Source: Octopus vulgaris (taxonomy: Eukaryota). Taken from it: a stretch of 64,000 nucleotides of DNA. Location: the NCBI GenBank assembly GCA_951406725.2, contig OX597824.1, positions 48,112,001-48,176,000 of the forward strand. Direction: 5' to 3'. The position numbers were made by a program, and so were the translations under genes. The number at the start of each line of letters is the position of its first letter. Positions within the stretch are counted from its first letter, which is position 1. Below the pieces are notes generated by a model. The model saw only the letters and a program-made list of their open reading frames with translations, had not been told where the DNA came from and did not search any database. Positions 1 to 22,404 of this stretch are shown piece after piece.

Positions 1-214
1 ATTTTCAAAAAACATCTAGACAAGCTGCTTTCCGGGATCCCAGATGAACCCACTGCAAGGTATGAAGGTAACCTAAGGGCAGCAGCTACAAACTCTCTCT
101 TAGATCAGTGGCCAGCCACGGCAAACTGGACTTAGAGAGGGTAGCAACAAGGGCGGTGCCCCAGCATGGCCTCAGCCGGATGGCTGAAACAAGTAAAAGT
201 AGAGTAAAAGAGTA
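1..214 (+). mobile_element. CR1-like LINE family A, copy 1: 3' end (ORF2 C-terminus 1-135 plus 3' UTR and tail); continues beyond the window start
   Basis: Frame +1 reads [44 protein letters not shown] (TAG 133-135), identical to the end of the 14229-17252 ORF. The 3' UTR has stem-loop TCAGCC-GGAT-GGCTGA (172-187) and an (AGTAAAAG)-like tail running into (TA)n. Confidence 0.95.
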
Positions 215-1640
<1,426 letters not shown>

Positions 1641-2210
1641 CTCTTTTACTCTTTTACTTGTTTCAGCCATCCGGCTGAGGCCATGCTGGGGCACCGCCCT
1701 TGTTGCTACCCTCTCTAAGTCCAGTTTGCCGTGGCTGGCCACTGATCTAAGAGAGAGTTTGTAGCTGCTGCCCTTAGGTTACCTTCGTACCTTGCAGTGG
1801 GTTCATCTGGGATCCCGGAAAGCAGCTTGTCTAGATGTTTTTGAAAATGTCCACATCCGCATCATGTAGATCTCTTAGTTTTCTTGGCAGTTTGTTGAAA
1901 AGCTGAGGGCCCCTGAACCCCAGGCTATTACAGTATCTGCTCCTTACCCTGGATGTGGAAGACGGGACCTTTGGCACCACACAGTGACGTCCTGTACGGG
2001 GATTGGAACAGCTCTCAATTCCAAAATTTGGTGCTAGTCCCTCCAGGATTTTCCATATGTATATCACTGCATATCTCTCTCGTCTTCGTTCCAAGGAGTA
2101 CAAATTGAGTTCCCTAAGCCTCTCCCAATAGTTCTTTTCTTTCATGGTGGAAATTCTCTTGGTGAAATGTCTTTGGATTGTCTCAAGCTCTGTGGTTAGT
2201 TTGACACTAT
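1641..2210 (-). mobile_element. CR1-like LINE family A, copy 2, 5'-truncated (~570 bp)
   Basis: Nearly identical to 14151-14725. Encodes [19 protein letters not shown]...[21 protein letters not shown]. Homology stops abruptly after GACACTAT at 2210. The tail abuts (TA)n at 1640. Confidence 0.95.
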
Positions 2211-2640
2211 AGATAAGCCAAAATTTTCTTTTCACTTCTTGACCGCCGCAATACATTTGCCTATAACACTAAAAAATGTATTATCTATTTCCTAATACTA
2301 ATACGCTTGTTTTGTTTACATCGTCTTTCCTAAATTCATTTTATGCGCTGATAGTTCCCCCTTCTCCATATCACTTTGTCTGTTCTTCGCCCTAAATTAT
2401 CCTCCATATTTATGCGCCGATAATTTCTCCAACTTCGCGCATTTTTAAGCCAACCCGTCAAGTTCAACCTTTGCATATTCCCGGTGCACCCGCCCTTGCC
2501 CACCCCCACCACCAATACCGGATATCTCTATATTTTTGCTCCATCTATACCGGATGTCGCTACTCCACCACCATTATAGGTGTCTACTCTCCGAACCCCC
2601 CTCTTCAATACGCTATTTCACCATGCATTACCCCTTCCCC
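2211..2640. other. Unclassified ~430-bp CpG-containing island embedded in the TA array (probable non-autonomous element)
   Basis: Unique, relatively GC/CpG-rich sequence bounded by the LINE junction (TA|GATAAGCC) and CCCC|TATATA. No recognisable ORF. Confidence 0.4.
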
Positions 2641-3583: not shown

Positions 3584-6411
3584 AGAAAGGAGTCATGTAG
3601 GAGTTGCTATGTACACCCGTGAGGACCTCACACCCCAGGTCCTTATGTCATACTGAAACTCGGTGTGTGACACACTAATTGTGCATGTAAGGCAACTTGG
3701 TGTAGTTGTGTGTGCTACATATCGCCCTCCAGATGCCCCAAGCCATGTAGGCAAGTTTGAAGACTGCCTTATAGAAATACAAGAAGTTCTAATCACATTA
3801 GAACAACACATAAGTGTACTTCTTATGGGAGATTTCAATCTACCCAATATCAGATGGCCCGAGGGCCTTTCTCTCTCAGGAATGACACGATGTGAACGAG
3901 GATGGGCGAGGTCCCTCCTGAACCTCATCAACACCCTGTACATGGAGCAAGTAATACTCCAACCAACCAGGGCAGGTAACACACTGGATCTCTGCTTCAC
4001 AAATAATATGGATCTCATCCATAATGTGAAAGTGACACCGACACTACTCTCGGATCACAACATGGTAGAGCTGACCATGTACGGGCCAAAAGAGAGCATG
4101 GACATGCAGCCTACAAGAAACTCTCAGAATCTTTCCAGCTTGAACTTCCATAAGGCAAACTGGAAACAAATTGAGAAAGAGATCCTCAAACAAAACTGGC
4201 CTGAATGTCTCTCCTCGCCAGACATCGACATGAAACTTCAACAATTCATGTCTGTAATGCAAGCCATATGCTACAAATGCGTCCCAGAGAGAAAGGCCAC
4301 TGTACACAAGAACAAAATCCCCAGAGAGAAGAAAATTATAATGACACGGCGTACAAAAATTTCAAATCGCCTAAACAAACAAATTGAAAGCAGTGAAAAT
4401 AAAACTGTTGGAAATTGAAAAATGTCTGCAACTCTCCCATGAAAAGGAAAGAGCAGACAAAGAAGCCTGGGCTATAGACAACATAAAATCTAACCCCAGA
4501 GCTTTCTACAGGTATGCCAAAGAAACAGCTACGGTGCACTGTAGGATAGGGGCCACTCCTTGAAAAGGATGGCAAACTCACAGAAAATCCAATGAGGGTA
4601 AGTGAAATACTAAATGAGCAATTCAAGAGTGTTTTCACTCCATCACTTGGGCATTTCCAAATCAGCAATCCAACTGACTTCTTTACCACTGCAGATATAA
4701 AATCAGAGGCAGCGATGATTGATTACATCAATATAAAGGAAGACGATGTAACAACGGCTATAGATGAAATGAAAACAAACTCAGCTACTGGCCCCGACGG
4801 ATTCCCGGCAATCCTTCTAAAAGTATGTAAGAGAGTCCTAGGAAGACCACTGCAGTTCCTCTTTCAGAGCTTCTTTGCAACTGGCAAACTTCCAAGAAAA
4901 CTGAAGGAAAGTAAAATATGCCCTATTCATAAAGGAGGTAGCAGAGCGGAGGCCAAGAACTACAGACCTATCTCTCTGACCTCACACATCAGCAAGGTCA
5001 TGGAACGAATAGTCAGAAGAAAACTGATCACCTTCCTTGAAAATGACTTGCTGCCTGACACCCAACATGGTTTCCGACCAGGAAGAAGCTGCCTAACTCA
5101 GCTCCTACAACACTATGACTGGGTGCTGAAACGACTGCTCAACCACTCAAATATGGAAGTGATATATCTCGACTTTGCAAAGGCCTTTGATAAAATCAAT
5201 CATGGAATGATATGTCACAAACTGCGTGACATTGGCATAGTTAGAAAATTGGGAGAATAGCTTCATGACTTTCTGAAGGATAGAAGTCAGGTGGTAGTAG
5301 CCATCAAGACGCAAATAGTGAGTGGTGTTCCGCAGGGCACTGTTTTGGGACCACTACTGTCCATAATGGCCCTCTCAGACATGCCCTCAGCCACGCAGAG
5401 AGCCACGATCACAAGTTATGCAGATGATACAAAAGTTTCACAGACAATACAGAACCCTGAAGACACTAAGCACCTGCAATGTGAGCTGGACAAAATATAC
5501 AAGTGGGCTGAAAAGAATAGCATGCAGTTCAATGCTGAAAAATTTCAAGCTTTATGCTATCAGCATGCAAAACTAAATGCAATACCCAATGAATACACTG
5601 GACCCTGAGGAATTGCAATCCCAGAAGCACAATCAGTGCGTCACAGTGCGTGACCTGGGTATTTACATGAGTGATGACGCAATCTTTCATGTACATGTTG
5701 CTAAATTCGCAATGACATGTAGATGGCTGGCTGGATGGATTCTTAGAACCTTTAGAACAAGAGAACAAGAAACCATGATGGTCCTCTGGAGGACACTTGT
5801 TCTCAGCCACTTCGACTATTGCTCTCAGCTATGGTCACCATCCAGTGTCAAGTTGATCATAGAACTTGAGGCAATCCAACGAAGCTACATGAAGAAGATA
5901 GCCTCTGTGCAGCATATAAGCTACTGGGAAAGACTCAAGAGATTAAAACTCTATTCCTTGGAGCATAGGCGAGAAAGATATGCCATGATATACATCTGGA
6001 AGATCCTGGAAGGACTTGTCCCAAACTTTGGCATCGAGAGTTACACAAATGCCAGAACTGGGTGCCACTGCGTGGTGCCAAGGACTCCGAATTTGTCATC
6101 AAGATGTAGGACAAGATACTGTGATAGCCTGGGCTTCAGAGGCCACAGCTCTTCAATGTCCTCCCGAAGAACCTGAGGGACCTGCATGGGGTGGATGCGG
6201 ATGTCTTTAAAGTAGGACTGGATCTCTTCCTGTCAGGTGTCCCGGATGAACCAACTTCACGGCAGGAGGTGCAGCTACATTGAACTCTCTATTGCACCAA
6301 ATAGCAGTTGCTAAAAAGCATTCGTGAAGTAAAATCATGTAGCAACACCAAATGGCGGTGCCCCAGCATGGCCACAGCTAGTGAGCTGAAACTAGATAAA
6401 ATATAAAAAAT
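3584..6411 (+). pseudogene. CR1-like LINE family B, 5'-truncated within the APE domain, with disrupted ORF2 (APE + RT)
   Basis: Collinear ORF fragments 3663-4418 (YRPP, LMGDFN, LDLCFTN, SDHN), 4592-5260 ([34 protein letters not shown]), 5291-5608 ([16 protein letters not shown]) and 5577-6176 (SYWERLKRLKLYSLE). These are broken by stops and frameshifts. The tail GGCGGTGCCCCAGCATGGCCACAGCTAGTGAGCTGAAAC is followed by TA; both flanks are TA. Confidence 0.93.
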
Positions 6412-7611: not shown

Positions 7612-8760
7612 CTTCTTTTTACTGCTCTTTACTTGTTTCAGCCATCCGGCTGAGGCTATGCTGGGGCACCGCCCTTGTTGCTACCCTCTCTAAGTCCAGT
7701 TTGCCGTGGCTGGCCACTGATCTAAGAGAGTTTTGTAGCTGCTGCCCTTAGGTTACCTTCGTACCTTGCAGTGGGTTCATCTGGGATCCCGGAAAGCAGC
7801 TTGTCTAGATGTTTTTTGAAAATGTCCACATCCGCATCATGTAGATCTCTTAGTTTTCTTGGCAGTTTGTTGAAAAGCTGAGGGCCCCTGAACCCCAGGC
7901 TATTACAGTATCTGCTCCTTACCCTGGATGTGGAAGACGGGACCTTTGGCACCACACAGTGACGTCCTGTACGGGGATTGGAACAGCTCTCAATTCCAAA
8001 ATTTGGTGCTAGTCCCTCCAGGATTTTCCATATGTATATCACTGCATATCTCTCTCGTCTTCGTTCCAAGGAGTACAAATTGAGTTCCCTAAGCCTCTCC
8101 CAATAGTTCTTTTCTTTCATGGTGGGAAATCCTCTTGGTGAAATGTCTTTGGATTGTCTCAAGCTCTGTGGTTAGTTTGACACTATGCGGTGACCACAGT
8201 TGGGAGCAGTAGTCCAGGCGGCTTAGGACAAATGTCCTCCATAGTGTCAACATGGTCTCGCAGTCTCTTGTCCAGAATGTCCTCAGGATCCAGCCAGTGA
8301 GTCGTCTGCACATTGTCGCCACCTTCGCGATGTGTGAAGAAAAAGATGCATCGTCACTCATGTCTATCCCCAGGTCCCGTGATTCGATACTGGGATTTCG
8401 ATCCCTCCTGGACCAGTATAGTTGTGTTGTAATGTATATGTGTTTACAGCTTGATATTGTAAGGCTTGAAATTTGCCAGCATTAAATTGCATGTTGTTGT
8501 CTTCAGCCCATTTGTATATGGCATCCAGATCTTGTTGTAAAAGGTCAGCATCAGCTGGGTTTGATTGCCTGTGCTACCAGGAGCATATATCATCAGCATA
8601 GCTAGTGAGGGATGTATATATATATATACCAAGGGCATGTCATATATAATATATATATAGCAAGGGTCCCAAGACATATATATACCTACTACATATACCA
8701 TTGGCTACTATATATGACATATATATCAGGAATATATATACGATATATATACATACCACC
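7611..8760 (-). mobile_element. CR1-like LINE family A, copy 3, 5'-truncated, with indels and a TA-mosaic 5' part
   Basis: Matches 14151-~15300 with small indels. From ~8570 LINE blocks (CATCAGCATAGCTAGTGAGGGATG, CCAAGGGCATGTCA, AGCAAGGGTCCCAAGAC, CCATTGGCT) alternate with TA runs. Confidence 0.9.
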
Positions 8761-10293: not shown

Positions 10294-12265
10294 TCATAAA
10301 TACATATATCTTTTCACCGCTCTCACAGCAACCACCACAATATATATATATATCACCACCGCTACCATATATATCTATCACATATATATAAACATATATA
10401 AGATATACATATATATACATACATATATATACTACTGCAGTAACAAAAACTTAAAGAAACATAGGATAGCATATACGGCACAAACAAGAAATCCCCAAAT
10501 ACATATATACATACATATATATATACATGCACAAATAGTGACATATATATATACATATACACTAGACGCACTACTGGCCAAGGCCAAAGCACGCATCCCA
10601 CAATAACATCAACACCACCAAATAGTAAATCAAACATTCAAAACACACACAACTATAAAATATGTATATATATATATATATATACATATATACTGAGTGA
10701 CTGTACTCATATATCCATACATATATATACAGAAATATCAAGCCAACATATATATATGAATATATATATATATATATATATATATACACTGCAGTAATGC
10801 TGGTATACATATATATGGACACATATATACAACAACATATATATATACTACAACCCTATCCAACAGTGCAACCACACCTCCAGCCAAAAACTGCTATATA
10901 AGCATATATATATATATATATATATATAGCCATATATATACATATATATATACATATATATATACATTCAACCATCACTCAACACCATCCTATATATATA
11001 CCCCAGTGCACCATATATCCCCACATATATATATACACACATATATATAAATATATGCATACATATATATACCAGCCACTACACTAACCTCCACATTCCT
11101 ATATATGCACAAGGTGTCATATATCATATGCACAAAAATGGACAGGTCACAATTCATTGAAGACATAACCATTCACACCACATCCCTTTCTTACATTCTC
11201 ACTGAGACCCACCTTGACATATATATATAGCCGAATATGAAGAATATATACATATATATAGGATATATATATATATACATATATTAACTGTATATATATA
11301 CGGCAGATGGAAATAGTATACTCCAACGGCTACTGTGAATCAGTCACCGTATACAACAAAGCCAATGATCTGACAGTAATTGGGCTCTATACAAACACCC
11401 ATACTGTGCTATATAAAGAATGCCTCAACAGCATTAAGTGCTTTATTCAACAGTGCCATTCTAGCAACATACTCATGATGGGAGACTTCAATCTACACAC
11501 ACTGGACTACAAACAAACCAAGCACTCCGCCTCAATACACACACACACACACAGTCACAAGCTTTACGAATGAGTTTTCTTGTCCCAACATATATGCACA
11601 CATATACATATATATATACATATATATATATACCACATATACATATATATATATATATACATATATACCTTCTTTCAGACCATGACATGGTTCTCTATAA
11701 CATGATATATTCCACCAGCCGAAAGCTAATCCTAGTGACCTTCCTCCAGCCCACCCATATATATATATAACATGGATCTCCATAAACCAACTGGGATGCA
11801 ATGTGGGAACGAGCTATATATATACATATATATATACATATATACACACATCTCCAGCATATATCACCATATGAAACATATCTTTGTAGACACCGTCACA
11901 GACATATATATATAACACTCCCCACCAAGACCTGTGAACAAAAAGTGCAGAATCCCCAAAACAGAAAATACCATTATCAGAAAAATAAAAAAAAGAACAA
12001 AAAATAGATATACAAACTAAAGTATAAAACATAACATATATATATAATATATATCCATATATATATATATACCTATATATATGAAGTCCCTCATCAATAA
12101 CCAAAGATCAGCTGAGGAGAAGTGGGCCATTGAATATATATATCATATATATAAAAGTGTTCTTTTCATTTGCGAGGAAACGCAGGGTCACTGTCTCCAC
12201 TGATGTATTTTGAAACGAACATCACTCGGACACATATATATATACAGATATGTAGCTGATCTGGA
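9548..12265 (+). mobile_element. Third CR1-like LINE (family C) interleaved with TA runs
   Basis: APE remnants YILTETHLD (~11190-11220), YSNGYCESVTVYNK...ILMMGDFN (11307-11495) and LSDHDMV (~11670). The later AEEKWAIE...KVFFSFARK (~12110-12180) is collinear with family [23 protein letters not shown]. The 5' boundary is uncertain. Confidence 0.7.
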
Positions 12266-14152
<1,887 letters not shown>

Positions 14153-14228
14153 CTCTTTTACTCTTTTTTACTTGTTTCAGCCATCCGGCTGAGGCCATGC
14201 TGGGGCACCGCCCTTGTTGCTACCCTCT

Positions 14229-17200
14229 CTAAGTCCAGTTTGCCGTGGCTGGCCACTGATCTAAGAGAGAGTTTGTAGCTGCTGCCCTTAGGTTACCTTC
14301 GTACCTTGCAGTGGGTTCATCTGGGATCCCGGAAAGCAGCTTGTCTAGATGTTTTTTGAAAATGTCCACATCCGCATCATGTAGATCTCTTAGTTTTCTT
14401 GGCAGTTTGTTGAACAGCTGAGGGCCCCTGAACCCCAGGCTATTACAGTATCTGCTCCTTACCCTGGATGTGGAAGACGGGACCTTTGGCACCACACAGT
14501 GACGACCTGTACGGGGATTGGAACAGCTCTCAATTCCAAAATTTGGTGCTAGTCCCTCCAGGATTTTCCATATGTATATCACTGCATATCTCTCTCGTCT
14601 TCGTTCCAAGGAGTACAAATTGAGTTCCCTAAGCCTCTCCCAATAGTTCTTTTCTTTCATGGTGGAAATCCTCTTGGTGAAATGTCTTTGGATTGTCTCA
14701 AGCTCTGTGGTTAGTTTGACACTATGCGGTGACCACAGTTGGGAGCAGTAGTCTAGGCGGCTTAGGACAAATGTCCTCCATAGTGTCAACATGGTCTCGC
14801 AGTCTCTTGTCCGGAATGTCCTCAGGATCCAGCCAGTGAGTCGTCTGCACATTGTCGCCACCTTCGCGATGTGTGAAGAAAAAGATGCATCGTCACTCAT
14901 GTCTATCCCCAGGTCCCGTATTGATTTCGATACTGGGATTTCGATCCCTCCTGGACCAGTATAGTTGTGTTGTAATGTATATGTGTTTACAGCTTGATAT
15001 TGTAAGGCTTGAAATTTACCAGCATTAAATTGCATGTTGTTGTCTTCAGCCCATTTGTATATGGCATCCAGATCTTGTTGTAAAAGGTCAGCATCAGCTG
15101 GGTTTTTGATTGCCTGTGCTACCTTTGTGTCATCAGCATAGCTAGTGAGGGATGTTGTTTGTGCTACCAAGGGCATGTCAGAGAGCGCCACCAAAAACAG
15201 CAAGGGTCCCAAGACTGTGCCCTGTGGCACCCCGCTTGCTATTGGTGTCTTTCCCGAGAGGGCTCCATTGGCTGCAACCATCTGGCTTCTGTCCTTCAGG
15301 AAGTCATGTATCCACTCACCTACTTTTCCTGTTATGCCGAGTCTGAGTAATTTGTGACATATCACTCCGTGGTCGACTTTGTCAAAGGCCTTCGCAAAGT
15401 CGAGATATACCACATCCACCTGTGAGCGATCCAGTAGTTGTTTCAGTACCCAGTCGTAGTGTTGTAACAGCTGCGTAAGGCAGCTTCTTCCTGGGCGAAA
15501 GCCATGCTGTGTGTCAGTGAGACGGTTAGTTTCTTCGAGGAACGTGATCAGTTTTTTTCTGATGATTCGTTCCATGACCTTACTTATGTGTGACGTCAGG
15601 GAGACTGGCCTGTAGTTTTTGGCCTCTGCTCTACTCCCTCCTTTGTGGATAGGGCATATGGTGCCTTCTTTTAGCGCCCTGGGCAGTTTACCGTTAGCCA
15701 AGGAACCACTGAAGAGCATCTTCAGTGGTCCCGCTAGGGCATGCCTGCATGTTTTTAGGAGGACTGCTGGGAATCCATCTGGTCCAGCAGCTGAGTTTAT
15801 TCTCATTTCTTCTATGGCAGATATTACATCCCTCTCTGTTATGTCTATGTGGTCGATGGTTGTTGTTTGGTTTTGGAGTGTTGTGGCATCAAAGAAAACT
15901 TCTGGGTTTGTGATTTGCATGTGCCCCAGAGGGGATGTGAACACACTTTTATACTGTTCCTTTAGTATTTCACTTATCCCTTGGGGGTCCTCAGTTAGAG
16001 AGCCCTTTTTATCAAAGAGTGGGCCAATCTTGCAGTGTACCGAGGTGGTTTCTTTCGCAAATTTAAAGAAAGCTTTAGGGTTTGTTTTAATATTCTCTAT
16101 GGCCCTGGCTTCTCTCTCTGCCCTCTCCTTCTCATAGGAAAGTTTGAGTGCAGTTTCCGTTTCAAAAAGTTTCAGGTGGAGTCCCTTATTGTTTCTCTGC
16201 CGTGCATTCAGTTGCTTCGAGAGCTTAGCTCTTCGCCTCATAAGTATTTTCCTGTCTCTGGGAATAACGTTCCTATGCCCGCTGGCTTTTTTCTCCGGGA
16301 CAAACTTATGGCATATGTTCTGTATTGTTGTCATGAAATGTTGGAAATGTGTGTTGGTCTCTTGTGTGGTGATGAAGTCACTCCAGTCATGTTTTCGGAT
16401 CTCTTCGTTGATCTTCTTCCAGTTTGCCTTATGGAAGTTTAGACTGGATAGGCCTGTGGTATTTTCTAATGGCTGCGTCTCAACTAACTCTCTCATACCA
16501 TATATCATTACCTCTACTAAGTTGTGATCTGAGAGAATTGTAGGTGTTACCATTATGTTGTGGATGAGCATCGGGTTGCTTGTGAAACAGAGGTCCAAGA
16601 CATTCTCACCTCTTGTTGGCCGAAGCACTGCTTGTTCCATGAAAAACTTGCGTGTGAGAGCCAACAAGGACTCTGTCTGTCTCTGTTCAAGTGATGTCAT
16701 TCCAGGGAGGAGATGGCCATCTGGCCATTTGACTTTCGGAAGGTTAAAATCTCCCAGCAGTAGAATGGTGTTACCCTGGTCCAGTTTGTCCAGGACTTCT
16801 TCTATTCTTCTGAGGCTATCTTCAAACACTCCTTCATGACTAGGGGTGTCTGGTGGCCGATATGTGACACATATTACTATTTTCGGTTGTTTCATGTGTA
16901 CTATCAGTGTGTCACAGACTGAGTTTGAGTGTGTCAACAGTACTATGGGTGTGACATCTTCACGGACGTACAGGGCAACCCCACCATGAGTTCTTTCCTT
17001 CCTGTCTGACCGAAAAACAGTATACTTTGGTACGTGTATTTCTGCATCTGCTATACTGCTTGACAGGTGCGTTTCAGTCAGCGCTATGCATATTGCATGG
17101 TTGCTTGTGCTTAAGTCCCTAAGGTAAGGAATTTTACTCATATTAGTGGGTTTCACCAGACCTCTGACATTCAGCAGAAGCACTGGTGAGATATTTGGGG

Positions 17201-17252
17201 TGTCAATAAAGGCTGTCGGTGTGGCACCTGGGCTGGTGTCAGTGGTGGCCAC
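14229..17252 (-). CDS. LINE ORF2: apurinic-like endonuclease + reverse transcriptase (1007 aa from GTG; frame open upstream to 17501)
   Basis: APE motifs [41 protein letters not shown] motifs [49 protein letters not shown]. The C-terminus [20 protein letters not shown] is CR1-type. No stops or frameshifts. Confidence 0.96.
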
Positions 17253-17667
17253 CCTGGGTCCCTTGATTGTGGTGGTCTTGAGTGCTGTTGTGAGTGCCCC
17301 TGGCTCTGAAGACGATGTATCCAGGCCAGTTGTCCCACAATTTTCTCTGCTATTTCCACAAAATTTCTTTGTTCTGCTGCCGCCGTCTGCATTTCCTCTG
17401 CAAATGTGCGCCTTCTCCTTGTTGGGGCATTCCGCACTATGTCTGCATATTTCTGGGGCAGCTTGAATTTGTTCTGGTTTTGGTTTCGGTCTTGGTTTTG
17501 GTTAAGGCATTTTGGTCGAGTGGGTTTGATGCAATTTCCATAGGGCCTGGGATGAGCGAACCTGCATCCTTCCCCTGTTTCTCCATGCCAGCAGGTTCCA
17601 TTCCGGAAGAATTTGCATGTTATCTGGGTTTTCTTGTCCCCAGTTCCTCTCTGTTTTTTCTTCCTCC
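17171..17667 (-). CDS. LINE ORF1, C-terminal ~165 aa, with a CCCH zinc finger (start lost at the TA junction)
   Basis: Unique C-terminal part of the 17171-21136 ORF: RRKKKQ...[24 protein letters not shown] (C-x7-C-x8-C-x3-H, 17552-17617), then an N/Q-rich linker, a helical [25 protein letters not shown] segment and a P/Q-rich tail. Confidence 0.75.
17360..17366 (-). promoter_or_regulatory. Candidate -1 ribosomal frameshift slippery heptamer A_AAU_UUU
   Basis: ORF1 codons AGA AAT TTT give X_XXY_YYZ in the correct phase; a -1 slip enters the ORF2 frame (AAA TTT TGT). Confidence 0.55.
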
Positions 17668-21141
<3,474 letters not shown>

Positions 21142-22404
21142 CAGAGTGTCCCTAAAAATGTACACACACTTTAGCAGCTGATAACTCTATTAACGTTTTT
21201 TTCTTTCTAGATGAAACCCAGTGGAATCAATGATGGCAAACTGACTAAGCTTTGAACGAAGAAAATTCATTCTAAAATGCTAATGAAAGTGTGAAAACAC
21301 AGTTGAAGTACAAAGACAGTTTAGGAGGGAGTTTCAAACAGAGCCACCAATGTGACTTACCATCACTCAAATTAGAGATAAGTTTGAAGCCAATGGAACT
21401 ATTCAGAATGTTCACAAGACGCGTCCCAGAAGACCATGAACATCAACAACTCCCCAAAGCAAGAAGGAGTGCTGGAAACATCACCAATGTCGAAGAAAAT
21501 CCATGCGGCAAAGAAGTAAGGATGTGGGTATTTTAAAATCGTCTTTACAACGCATTTTGAAGCATTGTCAATGGAAAAGGTACATTCCAAGATTATGCCA
21601 TGCTATTAATGATGATGATCCAGACCGGAGAGTGTAGTATTGCGAGTGGTACGTCGCATGATGTGTAGAAGATGCACATTTTCCAACAAAGATTGTGTGG
21701 AGTGATGAGGCCACATTCAAATTAAATGGTTCAATTAACTGCCACAATTGCACCAACTGGGGATCTGAGAATCCGCATGTTATGGTGGAACATCATGTTA
21801 ATTTACCAGGAGTTACAGTGTGGCGTGTCTTATCAAGAAGATTAACTGGACCAGTCTTTTTTGATGCTACTGTGACTGGTCCCGTTTACTTGAACTTGCT
21901 GCAACAGTCTGTCATGCCAAACATTAGAGAAGACTTTGACGATGAGGAGTTTTGTTTTCAGCAAGATGGGGCACCCCCACACTACTACTGTGATGTTAGA
22001 AACTTCTTTGAAGAGATCTTGCTAAACAGGTGGATTGGATAAGGGGTTTGGTTGAATACCCTCCGCATTCAATAGACCTCACACCACTAGACTTTTTTTA
22101 TGGGGATACCTAAAAGACAAAGTCTACACTATGAAACCTGCAACAGTCGCTGATTTCAGAGCAGCCATTGAATGAGAATGCACACAAATACCAAACACAT
22201 TGTTTTGTAATGGTTGCAATTCCATTGCTTCATGTTGTCAGCAGTGCCTGGACCAGAACGACGTCAGTTAGAAAACAGTTGTTGACAAAACAATAAAATA
22301 ATGTCTGTAGATTCTATTAAATTTTGAAAACGAAATGTATTTTAATAAACACCTACTTAACAATTATCTATATATAATGTATATACATTTTTTGGGATAC
22401 CCTG
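21142..22404 (+). mobile_element. Tc1/mariner-superfamily DNA transposon, probably DD41D (rosa/Visitor-like), with a decayed transposase
   Basis: TA flanks and imperfect TIRs: CAGAGTGTCCCTAAAAATGTACACACA on the left, and the right end reverse-complements to CAGGGTATCCCAAAAAATGTATATACA. Motifs [16 protein letters not shown] and (across a frameshift) YPPHSIDLTPLDFF.WGYLKDKVY. D-to-D spacing is about 41 after repair. Confidence 0.88.

Follow-up and report, generated by a model that had tools for sequence, protein, structure and literature searches.

Introduction

How the second open reading frame (ORF2) of long interspersed elements (LINEs) is translated is called an open question in reviews, including the examined part of PMC5009743. 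Bicistronic LINEs of the apurinic/apyrimidinic endonuclease (APE) type, exemplified by SART1 and by mammalian L1 with its unconventional initiation, share the problem of making the ORF2 protein (ORF2p). According to excerpts of PMC3894237 and PMC10275272, SART1 gains access to ORF2 by termination–reinitiation at a UAAUG sequence, RNA structure near the junction being of importance. A figure legend in PMC5911963 states that, in Dictyostelium, ORF2 of the elements TRE5-A and TRE3-A depends on a −1 frameshift, and excerpts of PMC5405496 suggest recoding of ORF2 by +1 frameshifting, reinitiation or readthrough in groups 1–3 of the Paramecium elements devoid of long terminal repeats (non-LTR elements). 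U_UUU_UUA of human immunodeficiency virus (HIV) and G_GAU_UUU of an umbravirus are named as shift sites in the examined part of PMC5009743, where the spacing of the stimulator is given as usually 5–9 nt (range 3–14). The present work concerns an APE-type LINE copy at positions 14151–17667 of a 64,000-nt stretch of the Octopus vulgaris genome (contig OX597824.1, positions 48,112,001 to 48,176,000 of assembly GCA_951406725.2), hereafter called the window. All coordinates are those of the window, and all features of this element lie on its reverse strand. The family of this LINE probably produces its endonuclease–reverse transcriptase as an ORF1–ORF2 fusion, through −1 frameshifting at the heptamer A_AAU_UUU (17366–17360), and for the clade to which it belongs the sequence evidence makes a strong case for −1 frameshifting.

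ORF1–ORF2 junction of the octopus element

In the window, ORF1 survives as a remnant of 165 codons (17171–17667), and ORF2 occupies a frame of 1090 codons from stop to stop (14229–17501), comprising a Thr/Ser/Pro-rich linker, the APE endonuclease and the reverse transcriptase (RT). The first-pass annotation of this DNA, made from the letters alone, had the ORF2 frame open at 17501, after the TAA at 17504–17502, and ORF1 end at the TGA at 17173–17171; scripts run on the window reproduce both boundaries. It further described a 331-nt overlap, in −1 phase and stop-free in both frames, which holds for this copy but not for the family, since the overlap measures about 259 nt in three of four runs from which contigs were aligned. 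Within the overlap, the ORF1 codons AGA AAT TTT contain AAATTTT at 17366–17360, in the correct ORF1 phase as annotated. This predicted −1 shift site, A_AAU_UUU in the RNA, is the sole perfect X_XXY_YYZ heptamer in ORF1 phase within ORF1; relaxed heptamers occur at 17369 (A_AGA_AAU, imperfect) and 17213 (G_CCU_UUA). Slippage at 17366–17360 would give the trans-frame junction EQRNF/CGNSR, the product sequence predicted beforehand. The −1 frame remained open across the whole overlap in 0.8% of synonymous resamplings.

Slippery site in related elements

A degenerate APE pattern recovered at least 115 metagenome loci, which are a sample. Best match placed 26 of them in the clade of the window's element (23 by a script rule; L007, L064 and L069 were added by hand), leaving 89 of the 115 listed loci outside. 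The whole junction was kept in 14 clade loci; the 12 left out comprise ten that end before the ORF2-frame stop, together with L088 and L069. A tree built from 47 APE sequences unites the window with each of the 13 junction loci included in it, in a clade of 29 rows with support of 100/98. Their relatedness is distant: APE identity among the 14 junction loci is 31–78%, and 31–43% to the window. Since the junction filter itself demanded an open frame in −1 phase, the phase does not count as an independent finding; support for it comes from a CCCH pattern in the ORF1 frame of 11 of the 14 loci.

The ORF1 sequence 'xFL' is encoded at this place by an in-phase U_UUU_UUA in 12 of the 14 relatives, the two others having G_UUU_UUA (L034) and G_GAU_UUU (L063). 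U_UUU_UUA is also present in L086, which was left out as too short, and in L088, where a single ORF1 codon precedes the ORF2-frame stop. Conservation of the heptamer, which the first-pass annotation had proposed as a check, thus takes a modified form: a slippery run does occupy the aligned ORF1 position across the clade, but its usual type is U_UUU_UUA, one codon further 3′. Across 15 sequences, 14 canonical heptamers are in phase, as against three in both wrong phases together. Conditional on the encoded residues, each relative has a probability of 0.004–0.047 of showing a canonical heptamer at the site, and of 0.006–0.108 of having an open −1 frame 3′ of it. The heptamer is conserved in the clade beyond what the protein requires, the T_TTT_TTA spelling being found in 12 of 14 relatives at the site versus one of 50 other Phe-Leu pairs of these elements; among LINE junctions outside the clade, U_UUU_UUA occurs in one of 37. 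The ORF2 frame closes a median of 16.5 nt 5′ of the heptamer and stays open for a median of 253.5 nt 3′ of it, up to the conserved Asn of the endonuclease (n = 16 for both, including the window and L088). Predicted folding is enriched at +4 to +75, where z lies below −1.5 at seven of 17 sites (mean −1.5; 60 shuffles each), compared with one of 15 upstream and one and three of 17 in windows further downstream. In L062 and L086, which carry U_UUU_UUA, the predicted hairpin is placed at +9.

Three loci outside the clade, L010, L044 and L065, also have a long −1-phase frame before ORF2 together with an in-phase A_AAA_AAC, A_AAU_UUU and A_AAA_AAC, respectively, and frameshifting may thus reach beyond this clade. 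Five further out-of-clade LINE loci (L116–L120) come from bacterial genome assemblies and are probably eukaryotic contamination. Scans of viral sequences yielded nothing of use, and L121 was set aside as an unrelated virus with a CCCH finger.

Start of ORF2

The first strand of the APE domain carries the motif LLLN (17169–17180), the Asn codon of which overlaps the ORF1 stop (cTGAat). The motif was located by profile alignment to 8uw3 and corresponds to strand E2-4 in the structure model; the same alignment places its Asn opposite N14 of LINE-1. Excerpts of PMC1965478 report that N14A lowers L1 retrotransposition to 1%, and the equivalent change in Zorro3 to under 5%. The earlier claim that no in-frame AUG lies upstream of LLLN was borne out in the window's family, and 12 of the 14 relatives likewise have no ORF2-frame AUG ahead of the Asn. 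The first in-frame ORF2 AUG (17139–17141) and the GTG at 17252, both annotated previously, were recovered by script. Since this AUG lies 10 codons past the conserved Asn, a start there would remove the Asn from ORF2p. The ORF1 stop overlaps the Leu-Asn codons of APE strand 1 in the window and in 11 of the 14 relatives. A stop-start arrangement of the SART1 type is absent: the ORF1 stop falls within APE strand 1 and the first ORF2 AUG follows 30 nt later, while the ATG immediately after the ORF1 stop (TGA ATG) is in the ORF1 frame rather than that of ORF2.

Two in-frame codons are candidate non-AUG starts. The first is a CUG at 17322–17324, with G at −3 and +4, which is the −1 reading of a conserved ORF1 Trp; it would correspond to the initial Met of the related protein P0004, at a similar distance from the Asn. 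The second is a GUG at 17250–17252, with A at −3 and G at +4.

RNA structure downstream of the heptamer

Folding predicts a hairpin at 17280–17347, with a firm stem at 17340–17288, as a candidate stimulator with a long spacer. The stretch 17356–17285 folds with an energy of −22.6 kcal/mol and a z of −3.2, none of 200 shuffles being equally stable. The z of the hairpin amounts to −3.2, −2.3 and −2.7 in three short windows and only to −1.4 in one of 110 nt. The CTGGC/GCCAG pairing noted in the first-pass annotation is real, but forms the upper part of this longer hairpin. No differences are listed within the hairpin in the contigs of the four runs; refolding with a family variant at 17351 leaves the hairpin unchanged and brings no stem closer. 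Close to the ORF1 stop, there is another stretch with predicted folding (z −2.8).

Sequence variation within the family

At least half of the element's sampled words are present in 18 of 24 listed runs, under five organism labels. In these runs (X1–X18) the sequence is near-identical, with word shares of 0.86–0.93, which may reflect close species, mixed samples or horizontal transfer. Contigs of four runs were aligned to 16900–17669; three span this region whole and the fourth covers it in overlapping pieces, runs with a small share (X19 and X20) having been left out. Two of the four aligned runs are guessed to be RNA. The copies are seen as contigs only, which lose rare variants and do not reveal RNA starts or levels.

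Over 16900–17669, the contigs of all four runs contain no frame-changing indel and no joint; the one indel present, in two runs, is a deletion of 18 nt at 17475 that preserves the frame. Heptamer and ORF1/ORF2 frame offset are unchanged in all four. A single ORF carrying a 1-nt indel peculiar to this copy, named at the outset as a way in which frameshifting could fail, is thereby ruled out as the cause of the offset. The window's own heptamer variant was checked in near-identical copies only. At 17430–17432, a codon read as GAA in the window is TAA in three of the four runs. The change, at 17432, is silent in ORF1 and introduces an ORF2-frame stop 63 nt 5′ of the heptamer, giving the shorter overlap mentioned above; any shift must therefore lie 3′ of 17430. 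The overlap holds 12 differences; scored singly, six leave the ORF1 protein unchanged and three do so for the ORF2 frame. Because of this imbalance, the ORF1 tail resembles a genuine protein sequence and the extension of the ORF2 frame a linker that tolerates change, although the numbers are small.

In 17112–17466, 10 of 14 differences are A in the window and G in the contigs on the sense strand, clustered at 17192–17243, and several of them are CG versus CA. CpG decay along the lineage leading to the window would fit this pattern; alternatively, the RNA may have been edited ahead of insertion.

Protein relatives

A search of 1.84 billion representative proteins with ORF1 gave nine matches. 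Five of them (P0124–P0128, 30–53% identity) keep the tail that follows the heptamer in the ORF1 frame; the conserved pattern after the single CCCH finger reads 'xF(L/V)x(M/I)AxxIVxxLxW'. The register of the window's site is taken from alignment with these five proteins, in which the window's R-N-F-V stands opposite S/A/N-F-L and the Phe of the heptamer opposite the Phe of 'FL'. A profile of the clade recovered the site in the two loci held out from it, as well as 'FL' in six further ORF1 proteins. A further match, P0123, looks like a frame-broken copy of the window's LINE family and supplies about 119 additional N-terminal ORF1 residues, from which a full ORF1 of about 285–300 residues may be estimated. 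Two named close proteins come from mantis shrimp and comb jelly. No fused ORF1–ORF2 proteins were found in searches with 233 and 4127 candidates, which is weak evidence. The sequence 'PGFSG' in P0017, considered as a −1 shadow of G_GAU_UUU, was dropped because by eye it falls 3′ of the site in its neighbour L006.

The N-terminal parts of ORF1 vary. Residues 1–63 of P0128 resemble a Myb/SANT domain weakly (E 0.0017, below cut-off). Judged by the N-termini of P0128, P0123 and P0124, ORF1 of the window's branch seems to combine a Myb/SANT-like N-terminus with one CCCH finger, and other branches have tandem CCCH fingers. The N-terminus of P0130 is Cys-rich and, by eye, PHD-like.

Objections and alternative explanations

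Several observations weigh against frameshifting at the named heptamer or temper the case for it. At least one canonical in-phase heptamer arises in 26% of 5000 shuffled overlaps, the chance of the window's heptamer given its R-N-F residues is 0.136, and 11% of synonymous resamplings leave the −1 frame uninterrupted between heptamer and ORF1 stop, since the Pro/Gln/His-rich tail seldom yields stops in that frame. The heptamer of this copy, taken alone, is weak evidence. It also lies one codon 5′ of the clade's usual site, the Leu codon being absent, and the clade profile gave the window's Phe103 the second rank and Phe89 the first. The spacer between the heptamer and the firm base of the hairpin measures 19 nt, or 12 nt if a weak 3-bp extension is counted, as compared with the usual 5–9 nt. 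The nearest relatives (P0003–P0005, about 63% identical) are known as proteins only, with no DNA found, and their predicted ORF2 proteins carry a Met ahead of LLLN. Within the clade, an AUG precedes the Asn in two of the 14 DNA relatives, L069 has no ORF1/ORF2 overlap at all, and 10 of the 17 sites lack a strong 3′ structure. The loci share ancestry, so that the probabilities given per locus cannot simply be multiplied. Some canonical in-phase heptamer is found in 18 of the 37 out-of-clade junctions, many of them in related copies; a heptamer as such therefore means little, and its identity and place carry the weight. It is the variant site, the long spacer, the second rank of the Phe and the Met of the nearest relatives that leave the exact site less secure than the clade-level case.

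The alternative that survives best retains frameshifting for the clade and supposes that the window's sub-branch initiates ORF2 separately at CUG 17324 or GUG 17252; ribosomes would get there by internal entry or by reinitiating backward, the heptamer would be a leftover and the hairpin an aid to the start. Each of the two codons has a purine at −3 and a G at +4 and is the −1 reading of a Trp codon conserved in ORF1 relatives; P0003 and P0004 have a Met within this stretch, CUG 17324 falls inside the predicted hairpin, and the canonical U_UUU_UUA has been lost in the window's family, where the spacer is long. However, 'xFL' is retained at the site in all five of the closest ORF1 relatives, AUG is absent from the stretch in 12 of the 14 DNA relatives, the Trp codons may be conserved for the sake of ORF1 itself, and CUG and GUG lie about 150 and 80 nt ahead of the ORF1 stop, in contrast to the overlapping stop-start of SART1. 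Separate initiation is considered unlikely.

Less likely still is a −1 shift elsewhere in the overlap, one codon earlier at A_AGA_AAU or at G_CCU_UUA (17213), or by a non-canonical route. The poor spacing between the named heptamer and the hairpin, the relaxed heptamers at 17369 and 17213 and the second folded stretch close to the ORF1 stop would suit such a shift. Yet the only perfect in-phase heptamer is that at 17366, which is also the one aligned with the clade's site, and a shift at 17369 would lie at an even greater distance from the hairpin.

Termination–reinitiation at AUG 17141, as in L1 or SART1, would produce an ORF2p without the first endonuclease strand. This AUG is the first one available, lies near the ORF1 stop, and reinitiation has been described for SART1; but its use would remove the strand with the N14-equivalent Asn and leave unexplained both the open −1 frame of 200–380 nt and the heptamer conserved in relatives, which renders the proposal highly improbable. 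The clade's runs of at least six T, together with rare joined forms that could escape contigs, would permit polymerase slippage on the U run, or splicing, to bring the ORFs of the RNA into frame ahead of translation, and the offset might alternatively be a fixed mutation in a dead family, but with only four T in the window's run, no joint or frame-changing indel in four runs (two guessed RNA), an intact ORF2 and a frame offset common to 14 relatives, this too has very little in its favor.

The LINE copy and its surroundings

The copy (14151–17667) is 5′-truncated and has (TA)n at either side. The truncation point, 17667, lies inside (TA)n, and the contigs of all four runs diverge from the window's letters past this position, for up to 1714 nt. 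As only the last 165 ORF1 codons are present, the copy itself cannot be an expressed template. The ORF1 remnant comprises a CCCH finger, a helix-like tail and the Pro/Gln/His-rich end; the zf-CCCH match is weak (Pfam E 0.0075, under the curated cut-off). ORF2 is intact over its 1090 codons and matches PF14529, PF03372 and PF00078, with the order APE then RT that is found in APE-type non-LTR elements. The structure model of the APE domain has a pLDDT of 95 and the LINE-1 endonuclease as its top fold match (E 1e-13). L1 ORF2p was likewise the best Protein Data Bank match in a profile search, which recovered the APE domain missed by a search with the single sequence. By Pfam, there is no protease in ORF1 or ORF2, no RNase H and no C-terminal zinc finger. 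With its two ORFs and this domain set, the element resembles the CR1/L2 group of the Jockey superfamily, to which it may belong, judging by C-terminal motifs, at the level of the group rather than of an exact clade. A placement in Proto2 was unsupported: the 3′ ends in the supplement of PMC7846101, compared by eye, are unlike the C-terminus of ORF2.

Copies that are 5′-truncated and share a common 3′ end are represented by the truncation at 17667 and by three further 3′-end fragments of the same family in the window, at 1–132 (forward strand), 1718–2226 (reverse) and 7734–8675 (reverse), with up to 100% amino-acid identity to ORF2. These fragments are a sign of recent activity of this LINE family. 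A sister-family copy at 3585–6400 (forward) is 5′-truncated, 55–69% identical and broken in frame several times; it starts directly after a (TA)-rich microsatellite and is cut within APE, so that it is without the junction. Both families have in common a 3′ untranslated region motif of about 20 nt (GGCGGTGCCCCAGCATGGCC), which is perhaps an RT recognition signal. LINE copies adjoin (TA)n tracts at 14151 and 17667, at 3585 and at 8675, a possible sign that the endonuclease favors (TA)n microsatellites as targets. The window also contains a decayed APE-like fragment interrupted by microsatellites (11090–11770, forward) and a transposase fragment (WSDEA...QQDGAPPH; 21662–22042, forward), presumably of the Tc1/mariner type.

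Proposed mechanism and comparison with known systems

The overlap and its phase, the heptamer, the lack of an AUG before the Asn and the slippery run at the matching position in the clade were all observed directly. The fusion by −1 frameshifting put forward in the first-pass annotation gains support from them at the family level, and the sequence-based checks left it standing. Most ribosomes would terminate at the stop within 'LN' and yield the ORF1 protein, which would have about 285–300 residues if encoded by a full copy. In a minority, the Asn and Phe tRNAs would slip in tandem on A_AAU_UUU, with the 3′ hairpin as a putative stimulator. Slipped ribosomes would read ...EQRNF-CGNSR..., a Thr/Ser/Pro-rich linker of about 60 residues and then the endonuclease, so that a fusion of about 1,260 residues would accompany the predominant ORF1 protein. 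Lacking a protease to cut it, this fusion would probably remain in one piece. Where the Leu is lost, the slippery run lies one codon further 5′, both in the window (A_AAU_UUU) and in the unrelated branch of L063 (G_GAU_UUU); the one-codon shift in L063 fits selection on slipperiness but is a single case. With less confidence, we lean towards the view that the clade of animal LINEs with CCCH-type ORF1s makes a protease-free, Gag-Pol-like fusion; that slipperiness itself is selected, the heptamer reappearing one codon upstream where the Leu codon is lost; and that the fusion sets the ratio of ORF1p to ORF2p and tethers the enzyme to the ORF1 particle on its own RNA.

The site seen in 12 of the 14 relatives is the very heptamer of HIV-1 gag-pol, and that of one relative equals the pea enation mosaic umbravirus site. 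Viral −1 sites and the present junctions are alike in the −1-phase overlap, the downstream frame without a start codon and the 3′ structure; unlike HIV-1 gag-pol, the element described here is a non-LTR element with APE and RT and has no protease by Pfam. The window's A_AAU_UUU is used in insect gypsy-type elements. It is not mentioned as a shift site in the examined part of PMC5009743, which lists HeT-A, TART and L1 under non-LTR elements and no such clade. The first-pass annotation held that characterized LINEs use termination–reinitiation; this is correct for SART1 but omits TRE5-A and TRE3-A, for which the review quoted above, in its excerpted legend, invokes −1 frameshifting without naming a heptamer or an assay. 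These two elements differ from the present clade in being amoebozoan, targeting tRNA genes and having a C-terminal zinc finger, whereas the clade has CCCH-type ORF1s and its named members come from animals. The Paramecium proposal, according to the excerpts, rests on consensus sequences only and concerns +1 frameshifting or readthrough, not −1. SART1 and L1 have a stop-start or an intergenic spacer, while here ORF1 extends into the first endonuclease strand. The examined part of a survey of Jockey-superfamily ORF1s (PMC4120745) has no match for CCCH, frameshift or overlap. No description of a conserved slippery site in this clade was found in the literature searched on LINE frameshifting, with Repbase Reports and most subscription journals outside the scope of the search. 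The likely situation is that of a known recoding mechanism at work in a LINE clade for which no description was found.

If correct, frameshifting would account for the translation of a second gene without a usable start codon and would extend −1 frameshifting of the HIV type to non-LTR elements of animals. The N-terminus of ORF2p would then be wrongly annotated in these families, and the uncut fusion would differ from both retroviral Gag-Pol and L1 in particle assembly. For one widespread clade, the question of how ORF2 is translated would receive a precise and testable answer, in the form of a seven-base site, a junction peptide and natural variants of the site.

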